The position numbers and the translations under genes were made by a program. From Escherichia coli (GTDB taxonomy: Bacteria > Pseudomonadota > Gammaproteobacteria > Enterobacterales > Enterobacteriaceae), in assembly GCF_003334305.1 (NCBI RefSeq), contig NZ_QOWS01000035.1: a DNA stretch of 31,024 nt, one strand, 5' to 3'. The notes under the pieces are model-generated. The model had not been told where the DNA came from. It made no database searches and saw nothing but the letters and a program-made list of their open reading frames with translations. Within the stretch, counting starts at the first letter, position 1; the number at the start of each line of letters is the position of its first letter. Positions 1-3,436 of this stretch are shown here, piece after piece.

Positions 1-55
1 TTTTTCGTCTTGCGACGTTAAGAATCCGTATCTTCGAGTGCCCACACAGATTGTC

Positions 56-75
56 TGATAAATTGTTAAAGAGCA
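56..75 (-). promoter_or_regulatory. rRNA operon leader boxA antiterminator (NusB/NusE site), with boxB-like hairpin at about 81-104
   Basis: Minus strand reads TGCTCTTTAACAATTTATCA, the canonical rrn boxA. The surrounding leader matches the rrn leader as I recall it; the 16S gene would begin about 75 nt beyond position 1. Confidence 0.8.
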
Positions 76-113
76 GTTGCGACGCGCTTTAGCGCACTGT
101 CGCGAGGTGGCGT

Positions 114-141
114 ATATTACGCTTTCCTCTTTCAGAGTCAA
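114..141 (-). promoter_or_regulatory. rRNA operon P2 promoter
   Basis: Minus strand TTGACT (136-141) and TAATAT (114-119) separated by 16 nt, in the expected position between P1 and boxA. Confidence 0.75.
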
Positions 142-223
142 CCCTGAATTTCAGGATTTTTCTCTTCAACCGAACCGGCTGTTTGTGTGAAGTAATTCAC
201 ATCCGCCGTGTCGATGGAGGCGC

Positions 224-275
224 ATTATAGGGAGTTCTCCGCAGGCCGCAATAGAAAAATTGCAGAAAAATGACT
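224..275 (-). promoter_or_regulatory. rRNA operon P1 promoter with A/T-rich UP element (rrnE-like)
   Basis: Minus strand reads TTTTTCTGCAATTTTTCTATTGCGGCCTGCGGAGAACTCCCTATAATGCGCC: -35 TTGCGG, -10 TATAAT (224-229), GC-rich discriminator GCGCC, and an A/T tract upstream. Confidence 0.75.
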
Positions 276-422
276 GACTGCTGCATTCCCCAGCAAAACC
301 CCGCTTTATACCTTTTTACGCACAGAGTTATCCACAATCATCAATGTAATTTCTGTATTTTTCCCACGGTAACCACTGTCAAAATTGTGATCACCATTGA
401 AAGAGAAAAATTCGCGAGCGTT

Positions 423-438
423 GCGCAAACGTTTTCGT
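423..438. promoter_or_regulatory. PurR operator (Pur box) of purHD
   Basis: gcgcaaacgttttcgt matches the PurR consensus ACGCAAACGTTTTCNT, about 110 bp upstream of the purH ATG. Confidence 0.8.
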
Positions 439-545
439 TACAATGCGGGCGAAAAATAAGGATGCCCCGTTAGGGGCGTTAGCTGAGTTTTTCGCGAAAA
501 ATTCAGCTAACGCTCTCTGTAATAGTCAAATCCAGGGGATTTACC

Positions 546-2146: not shown

Positions 2147-3436
2147 ATGAAAGTATTAGTGATTGGTAACGGCGGGCGCGAGCACGCGCTGGCCTGGAAA
2201 GCGGCCCAGTCGCCGCTGGTTGAGACTGTTTTTGTTGCTCCGGGTAATGCAGGCACTGCACTGGAACCCGCGCTGCAAAACGTTGCTATTGGCGTGACCG
2301 ATATCCCGGCGCTGTTGGATTTCGCACAAAACGAAAAGATTGATCTGACCATCGTCGGCCCGGAAGCGCCGCTGGTGAAAGGCGTGGTCGATACCTTCCG
2401 CGCCGCCGGGCTGAAAATCTTCGGCCCAACCGCAGGTGCGGCCCAACTGGAAGGCTCAAAAGCGTTTACCAAAGATTTCCTGGCCCGCCATAAGATCCCT
2501 ACGGCGGAATACCAGAACTTCACCGAGGTAGAACCTGCGCTGGCGTATCTGCGTGAGAAAGGCGCGCCAATCGTCATTAAAGCGGACGGTCTGGCTGCCG
2601 GGAAAGGCGTTATCGTGGCGATGACGCTGGAAGAAGCGGAAGCGGCTGTTCACGATATGCTGGCGGGCAACGCTTTTGGCGACGCGGGTCATCGCATCGT
2701 TATCGAAGAGTTCCTCGATGGCGAAGAAGCGAGCTTTATCGTGATGGTAGACGGCGAGCATGTGCTGCCGATGGCCACCAGCCAGGATCACAAACGCGTA
2801 GGCGATAAAGATACCGGACCAAACACGGGCGGGATGGGCGCTTACTCCCCCGCGCCGGTAGTAACCGATGAAGTTCATCAGCGCACCATGGAACGTATCA
2901 TCTGGCCAACCGTGAAAGGCATGGCGGCGGAAGGCAACACCTACACCGGTTTTCTCTACGCGGGCCTGATGATCGACAAACAGGGCAATCCGAAGGTTAT
3001 CGAATTTAACTGCCGCTTTGGCGATCCAGAAACCCAGCCGATTATGCTGCGCATGAAGTCCGATCTGGTTGAGCTCTGCCTGGCGGCCTGTGAAGGCAAA
3101 CTGGACGAGAAAACGTCAGAGTGGGATGAACGCGCTTCTCTCGGCGTGGTGATGGCTGCGGGTGGATATCCGGGTGATTACCGCACCGGTGACGTGATCC
3201 ACGGCCTGCCGCTGGAAGAAGTGGCAGGCGGCAAAGTGTTCCACGCGGGCACGAAACTGGCGGATAACGAGCAGGTAGTGACCAGCGGCGGGCGCGTACT
3301 GTGCGTCACCGCGCTGGGTCATACCGTGGCAGAAGCGCAGAAACGCGCTTATGCCTTAATGACCGATATTCACTGGGACGACTGCTTCTGCCGGAAAGAT
3401 ATCGGCTGGCGCGCTATCGAACGCGAGCAGAACTAA
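2147..3436 (+). CDS. purD: phosphoribosylamine-glycine ligase (GAR synthetase)
   Basis: 429-aa ORF with ATP-grasp-type sequence, recognised as PurD; forms an operon with purH. Confidence 0.96.
   Translation: MKVLVIGNGGREHALAWKAAQSPLVETVFVAPGNAGTALEPALQNVAIGVTDIPALLDFAQNEKIDLTIVGPEAPLVKGVVDTFRAAGLKIFGPTAGAAQLEGSKAFTKDFLARHKIPTAEYQNFTEVEPALAYLREKGAPIVIKADGLAAGKGVIVAMTLEEAEAAVHDMLAGNAFGDAGHRIVIEEFLDGEEASFIVMVDGEHVLPMATSQDHKRVGDKDTGPNTGGMGAYSPAPVVTDEVHQRTMERIIWPTVKGMAAEGNTYTGFLYAGLMIDKQGNPKVIEFNCRFGDPETQPIMLRMKSDLVELCLAACEGKLDEKTSEWDERASLGVVMAAGGYPGDYRTGDVIHGLPLEEVAGGKVFHAGTKLADNEQVVTSGGRVLCVTALGHTVAEAQKRAYALMTDIHWDDCFCRKDIGWRAIEREQN

Follow-up and report, generated by a model that had tools for sequence, protein, structure and literature searches.

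The first 275 nucleotides (nt) of the 31,024-nt stretch of Escherichia coli DNA analyzed here (hereinafter, the window) almost certainly contain, on the minus strand, the control region of the ribosomal RNA (rRNA) operon rrnE (rrsE-gltV-rrlE-rrfE), with its tandem promoters P1 and P2, together with the first part of the 5' leader; we put the probability of this assignment at about 97%. The segment differs from the K-12 rrnE control region by one substitution and is a member of this family by every testable feature. The rrnE control region at 1-275 is already known, and in this respect the finding is correct but ordinary. The initial annotation had recognized an rrn control region on the minus strand of this segment from a set of promoter and antiterminator motifs, and every motif it named is present where it was placed, although the UP element holds only in the qualified form given below.

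Assignment of the control region to rrnE

The 16S-upstream regions of all seven K-12 rrn operons were taken and aligned to the window. All seven align, in line with the initial annotation, and the best match over the span 275-1 is to rrnE (274/275 identical positions), followed by rrnH (247), rrnD (214) and the remaining operons, rrnA, rrnB, rrnC and rrnG (189-193). The only difference from K-12 rrnE in this span is at window position 194 (T on the minus strand here, C in K-12), in the loop of a small GUGAA/UUCAC hairpin within the P1-P2 spacer; over window 1-400, the identity to K-12 rrnE is 396/400, with further substitutions at positions 299, 362 and 377.

It could be argued that the leader comes from another rrn operon, such as rrnH or rrnD, or is a recombinant hybrid. 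Indeed, from the P1 transcription start (+1) to P2 the window is equally close to rrnE and rrnH (72/73 each), rrnE, rrnH and rrnD share an identical P2 core, and from boxA to the window edge all seven operons, rrnE included, are indistinguishable from the window (75/75). Furthermore, rrn operons are known to recombine, as in the case of the rrnD/rrnE inversion in strain W3110 (PMC5179076). Against this, the UP tract and P1 core are identical to those of rrnE (61/61), compared with at most 39/61 in the other operons, boxB matches rrnE at 32/32 positions vs 29/32 in rrnH and rrnD, and the upstream flank matches rrnE at 122/125 positions vs at most 48/125 elsewhere, the far-upstream part of the flank being matched by rrnE only among the seven operons. 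In addition, purH adjoins the control region, and genomes identical to the window show the rrnE layout of the operon body (tRNA-Glu, yjaB, metA). The best identity to the rrnE leader, combined with the presence of purH and purD as divergent neighbors, identifies the operon as rrnE; an origin from another rrn operon is extremely unlikely and, for the promoter and leader, effectively refuted. If the operon body downstream of the window had been exchanged in the source genome, as in W3110, the identity of the 1-275 segment would remain the same.

The divergent arrangement with purHD described in the initial annotation was confirmed, with purH at 546-2135 and purD at 2147-3436, both on the plus strand, both recovered as open reading frames (ORFs) and annotated as these genes in RefSeq in identical DNA. 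Many complete E. coli chromosomes carry the 545-nt region between purH and the window edge (1-545) at 100% identity, which rules out a chance resemblance, and strains A7 and A28 share window 1-25000 with 100% identity. With the 545-nt stretch as the query, all 5426 E. coli genomes gave matches, at a median of 7 places per genome, which corresponds to the seven rrn leaders, and 5411 of the 5426 complete genomes carry at least 80% of this stretch. The number of places ranges from 4 to 10 per genome, and 10 of the 37,991 matches are on plasmids, suggesting that some strains have fewer or extra copies of the rrn leader, including plasmid-borne ones. In RefSeq/PGAP, nothing is annotated under the match in the 545-nt gap.

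As the initial annotation held, the 16S gene is not in the window: no rRNA gene was found within its 31 kilobases (kb). In the genomes identical to the window, the 16S start (AAATTGAAGAGTTTGATCATGGCTCAG) is located 69 nt beyond window position 1, that is, to the left as the initial annotation had it, but closer than the distance of about 100 nt that it gave. In strain 2013C-3264, for example, the 16S gene is followed by tRNA-Glu and 23S, and in strain A7 the operon body consists of 16S, tRNA-Glu, 23S and 5S, followed by yjaB and metA, which is the K-12 rrnE layout. In K-12 MG1655, the 16S gene likewise begins 69 nt from the corresponding edge. Given this distance, window position x corresponds to position -(69+x) relative to the mature 16S, which places the window edge at -70, between the leader helices hA and hB. 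For the source genome, we predict from these sequences that the left flank of the window would read TGAATACCAAGTCTCAAGAGTGAACACGTAATTCATTACGAAGTTTAATTCTTTGAGCATCAAACTTTT followed by AAATTGAAGAGTTTGATCATGGCTCAG.

The location of the 16S gene outside the window might be taken to indicate an rrn promoter remnant, orphaned or decayed, that has ceased to drive an rRNA operon. Given the 100% identity to intact loci, the retention of at least 80% of the 545-nt stretch in nearly all complete genomes noted above, and the full operon found 69 nt away in every annotated example examined, the probability of such a remnant is practically negligible. The rrnE assignment fixes the left end of the window at -70 of rrsE and gives the orientation of the entire window (purHD, zraRS, zraP, hupA, the thi operon and rpoBC). 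Given that the corresponding RefSeq/PGAP gap is empty, the coordinates of P1, P2, boxB, boxA, boxC and the leader-trailer helix could be of use for the annotation of this strain.

Promoters, upstream region and transcribed leader

All seven E. coli rrn operons possess tandem P1 and P2 promoters, of which P1 is dominant during fast growth and P2 provides basal transcription, and the control of these promoters involves an AT-rich UP element, a G+C-rich discriminator, Fis, H-NS, guanosine tetraphosphate (ppGpp) and the initiating nucleoside triphosphate (NTP) (PMC4696680; PMC5179076). In the window, the P1 elements named in the initial annotation are all present on the minus strand within 251-216. 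The -35 hexamer TTGCGG (251-246) is unique to rrnE among the seven K-12 operons and is separated by a spacer of exactly 16 base pairs (bp) from the -10 hexamer TATAAT (229-224), which is followed directly by the G+C-rich discriminator GCGCCTCC (223-216), beginning with GCGCC; the -10 hexamer and the discriminator are invariant in the seven K-12 leaders. The composite pattern TTGCGG-N16-TATAATGCGCC occurs once in the 31 kb, compared with 0.01 occurrences expected. By alignment to rrnB P1, transcription from P1 would start at the A in position 215. In the alignment of the seven K-12 operons, the +1 column contains G in rrnD and A in the other six. The known rrn P1 promoters start with either GTP or ATP, in agreement with this difference between rrnD and the rest.

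P2 was likewise found where the initial annotation had it (141-114, minus strand), with the -35 hexamer TTGACT (141-136), which is invariant in the seven leaders, a 16-bp spacer and the -10 hexamer TAATAT (119-114). This promoter was recovered by a blind, mechanical sigma-70 scan with 9 of 12 positions matching (one match of this quality vs 0.3 expected), and its start is predicted near 108-106. The spacer between the P1 discriminator and the P2 -35 hexamer is 73 nt, and P2 lies approximately 109 nt downstream of the P1 start.

The same arrangement was sought in other genomes by a scan of species-representative genomes anchored on the purH start, which yielded 120 loci from Escherichia, Citrobacter, Salmonella, Klebsiella, Enterobacter, Kosakonia, Pantoea, Erwinia, Mixta and other genera. 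The P1 -10 and discriminator sequence TATAATGCGCC is located divergently upstream of purH in 89 of these 120 loci of Enterobacterales; in most of the remaining loci, the contig stops short of this sequence, usually within the rrn leader, a point at which assemblies break. Among the 87 distinct purH-adjacent P1 regions, the -35 hexamer is TTGCGG in 61, TTGCAG in 13, TTGCGC in 11 and TTGTCA in 2, and the spacer between the -35 and -10 hexamers varies freely across genera. Most of the draft Enterobacterales contigs that carry purH end 250-650 nt upstream of this gene, inside the rrn leader. It follows from these contig ends that the divergent purH/rrn arrangement is widespread and that the rrn repeat breaks assemblies at this point.

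Immediately upstream of P1, there is an UP-like AT-rich tract GTCATTTTTCTGCAATTTTTCT (253..274, minus strand, -59 to -38 of P1; 73% A+T) that is conserved across genera. This tract partly overlaps a conserved upstream activating block, GGTTTTGCTG(G/T)GGAATGCAGCAGTCAGTCATTTTT (about 265-300, minus strand), which is nearly invariant in the 87 distinct P1 regions from many genera and aligns with the upstream region of rrnB. The block includes a G-N13-C 15-mer (294-280) centered at about -72 from the P1 start, a position homologous to that of Fis site I of rrnB. By this homology, the block probably encompasses Fis site I and a distal UP subsite.

Of the seven rrn promoters, rrnE has been reported to bind the most Fis in gel shifts, to show the greatest dependence on Fis and to be the strongest (Maeda 2015, PMC4696680). 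The rrnE forward primer used in that study maps to window 487-474 on the minus strand, so that the published rrnE fragment is the purH-adjacent promoter (window 487 through 1). The text of the same work assigns Ile/Ala spacer tRNAs to rrnE (PMC4696680), at odds with the tRNA-Glu found next to purH; this conflict is accounted for by the rrnD/rrnE inversion that W3110 carries (PMC5179076). The 1-275 segment delineated in the initial annotation does contain the control region, but this region reaches past 275: the conserved block continues to about 300, and the fragment published as the rrnE promoter, which has multiple Fis sites, extends to 487. A 67-amino-acid ORF with an ATG start (270-473, plus strand) was considered as a gene in this area, but it runs across the region upstream of P1 and the PurR operator, RefSeq has no annotation there, and it is therefore probably spurious.

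Downstream of P2, the transcribed leader contains boxB, boxA and boxC, in this order, in agreement with the published description (PMC10250234), and the boxB/boxA antiterminator of the initial annotation is thereby recovered. The boxB hairpin GCGAC-AGU-GCGC-UAAA-GCGC-GUCGC (103-79, minus strand), predicted in both the minimum free energy (MFE) and the centroid folds, is an rrnE-specific variant. The NusB/NusE-binding element boxA (TGCTCTTTAACAA; 75-63, minus strand, 16S -144 to -132) is invariant in the seven leaders, and the exact 13-mer is present in a single copy in the 31 kb. It has been shown that boxA is necessary and sufficient for the recruitment of NusB/NusE and the assembly of the rrn antitermination complex with NusA, NusG, S4 and SuhB, whereas what boxB does in rrn operons has yet to be established (PMC10250234). 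Position -141, which was mutated in the same study, falls within boxA (Warner 2023, PMC10250234). The motif defined there as boxC (UCUGUGUGGG / TCTGTGTGGG) is found at 50-41 (minus strand, -119 to -110), and the predicted leader helix hA, CGUC-GCAA-GACG (17-6, minus strand, -86 to -75; MFE fold), has the coordinates of the delta-hA deletion of that work (Warner 2023, PMC10250234).

The segment 60-19 (minus strand, -129 to -88) is predicted to form the 5' strand of the 16S leader-trailer helix, the substrate of RNase III. In the duplex prediction, it pairs with positions +5 to +46 of the trailer, taken from a genome identical to the window, at -55.8 kcal/mol, with 24 contiguous pairs including one G-U. 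None of 1000 shuffled sequences reached this energy, compared with 1 of 300 in the first control. The single shuffle that reached the real energy did so by long but fragmented pairing, i.e., the duplex energy is heavy-tailed, so that the contiguous complementarity of 24 bases is the stronger argument. According to published data, boxC lies within the 5' strand of the leader-trailer helix that is cleaved by RNase III (PMC10250234), and the critical leader region -113 to -89 (Warner 2023, PMC10250234) coincides with the predicted helix strand.

The only Rfam signal at 1-275 is a match below threshold to RF02849 (Ysr197, the Yersinia 'sRNA 197'), which raises the possibility that the segment encodes a discrete small RNA (sRNA), instead of or besides the rrn leader. 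The match covers 284-53 on the minus strand with a score of 117.5 bits and an E-value of 1e-29, and Ysr197 has been reported in the literature as an exponential-phase RNA that undergoes strong repression in stationary phase and as the 'sRNA' with the highest prevalence in bacterial genomes. The score is nevertheless lower than the gathering threshold of 167, and the alignment spans the P1 -10 hexamer, P2, boxB and boxA, so that it includes promoter DNA that is not transcribed. This span indicates that the Rfam model itself represents an rrn promoter and leader. The growth-phase behavior and the multi-copy prevalence fit a leader fragment driven by rrn P1 and released by RNase III, and no independent function of Ysr197 is documented in the literature examined. 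Hence a separate sRNA at this location is very unlikely, and what Ysr197 represents seems to be the promoter and leader of Yersinia rrn operons, not an sRNA gene in its own right. The apparent identity of such a widely distributed 'sRNA' family with the rrn promoter and leader is a by-product of this analysis that is of wider use.

Several observations limit the assignment of the control region to rrnE or the identification of its individual elements. The link to 16S rests on genomes identical to the window, with the 16S gene itself outside of it, and both transcription starts are putative positions placed by alignment. The generic sigma-70 scan of the window failed to call P1, which is explained by TTGCGG matching TTGACA at just 3 of 6 positions; this miss is a limit of the scan and not evidence against P1. 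The UP element of the initial annotation corresponds to an AT-rich T-tract (275-252) whose match to the UP consensus is weak (6-8 of 14 informative positions, counted by hand). A scan with a degenerate Fis consensus produced three weak matches (centers at -170, -243 and -327) and missed the site I identified by homology. When up to two mismatches are allowed, 0.59 matches to boxA are expected by chance, so that only the exact match and its context are informative. Finally, the whole leader folded alone is no more stable than shuffled sequences (z = -0.90), as expected given that the trailer, with which the leader mainly pairs, lies at a distance of 1.6 kb. There is no evidence that contradicts the rrnE reading.

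The divergent purHD leader and other features of the window

On the opposite side of the intergenic region, the PurR operator of purHD is located at 423..438 (plus strand); its minus-strand sequence, ACGAAAACGTTTGCGC, is identical to the purH-purD motif obtained by chromatin immunoprecipitation with microarray analysis, ChIP-chip (Cho 2011). Directly after the operator, there is a hexamer TACAAT/TAAAAT (439-444, plus strand) that is conserved across genera, and TACAAT at this position is probably the -10 element of purHD. The scan called no plus-strand promoter for purHD, and no convincing -35 hexamer was found.

The purHD leader downstream of these sites is rich in predicted secondary structure, with a small GC hairpin GCCCCGTTAGGGGC (464-477), a perfect inverted repeat of 19 bp (476-494 and 495-513), lengthened to 20 bp in the fold (473-516; z = -3.47), and a hairpin AAATCC-AGG-GGATTT over the Shine-Dalgarno sequence (528-542), all on the plus strand. 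A conserved AAGGATG located just 5' of the small hairpin may resemble a core motif of CsrA.

Pairing in the long stem reaches 97.6% in an alignment of 63 compact leaders; the stem is mostly invariant, with double changes in 3 pairs and one variable pair that does not form in 19 of 62 sequences. When this alignment was turned into a covariance model, 49 additional loci gave full-length matches upstream of purH; these loci contain apical inserts of up to approximately 60 nt. In the model-fitted alignment, 9 of the 15 pairs of the long stem change on both sides (e.g., GC 25/CG 21; GC 23/UA 22), and 92.6% of the cells are paired, compared with 84.9% in shuffles (0/500 reach the observed value) and less than 49% with slid partners, although the alignment leans towards the model and two pairs are often broken. 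Judging from these sequence comparisons, the long hairpin has been retained across Enterobacterales: paired bases change in a compensatory manner, and the insert at its apex is variable.

The dyad was considered as a DNA site of a dimeric regulator, but the arms are as little as 4 nt apart in some genera and over 60 nt apart in others, with the pairing retained, and this variability favors an RNA hairpin over a dimeric DNA-binding site. A ZTP or another known riboswitch upstream of purH was also considered and rejected, with no Rfam match even at E <= 10. The purHD leader element does not belong to any family in Rfam 15, and no description of it was found in the searchable literature, although the 1989-1990 papers on purHD sequencing may mention the dyad. 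We therefore tentatively suggest that the leader might contain an undescribed cis-regulatory or stabilizing RNA element of the purine biosynthesis operon that would act besides PurR, a possibility that we consider somewhat less than even. Such a hairpin could function as a 5' stabilizer, in translational control, or in the binding of a protein or a ligand. This hairpin, a second by-product of wider use, is the sole item that might repay more work; the 1-275 segment does not look new in any respect.

Elsewhere in the window, three matches at the Rfam gathering level were detected: the TPP riboswitch (11777-11877, plus strand) upstream of thiC, sroH (17570-17730, plus strand) between thiH and yjaZ, and the 'Pseudomonas sRNA P26' (27066-27127, minus strand) in the rplL-rpoB intergenic region.

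Proposed mechanism and comparison with known systems

From what is established for rrn operons, we propose that sigma-70 RNA polymerase would initiate mainly at P1 of this control region during fast growth, aided by contacts of the alpha subunit's C-terminal domain (alpha-CTD) with the AT-rich tract and by Fis binding farther upstream. The suboptimal -35 hexamer, the 16-bp spacer and the G+C-rich discriminator would together produce a short-lived open complex and, because of this short lifetime, P1 is expected to respond to ppGpp/DksA as well as to the level of the initiating NTP. The downstream promoter P2 would contribute basal transcription. The nascent leader would then expose boxB, boxA and boxC, with boxA recruiting NusB/NusE, which together with NusA, NusG, S4 and SuhB are predicted to form the rrn antitermination complex. 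Later, the boxC region (60-19) would pair with the sequence after 16S to form the helix cut by RNase III. In the opposite direction, purHD would be transcribed from its own PurR-controlled promoter.

The closest known counterpart of this region is rrnE of K-12 MG1655 (upstream of rrsE, b4007), which has the same neighbors, with purH divergent, the same distance to 16S and the same operon body as the genomes identical to the window. The K-12 rrnH control region is nearly identical to that in the window from the P1 -10 hexamer through P2 but differs in the -35 hexamer, the UP tract, the upstream region (37/61) and boxB (29/32), and is flanked by gmhB rather than purH. The experimental paradigm, the P1 and P2 promoters of rrnB, has the same succession of a -35 hexamer, a 16-bp spacer, TATAAT, a GCGCC discriminator, P2 and boxB-boxA-boxC, and is identical in sequence from boxA to the window edge (75/75) on the way to 16S. 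Over the whole span, the identity to rrnB is 193/275, and the differences include the -35 hexamer itself (TTGTCA in rrnB vs TTGCGG in the window), the UP tract, the Fis region and boxB, along with a P1-P2 spacer that is approximately 9 nt shorter in the window.

Beyond the rrn operons, the nut sites of phage lambda likewise present boxA and a boxB hairpin on the nascent RNA for the assembly of an antitermination complex with Nus factors (PMC10250234). Compared with lambda nut, the rrn leaders have the order boxB-boxA-boxC, do not employ the N protein and involve S4 and SuhB (PMC10250234), so that the likeness is best regarded as a functional analogy and not as membership in the same family.

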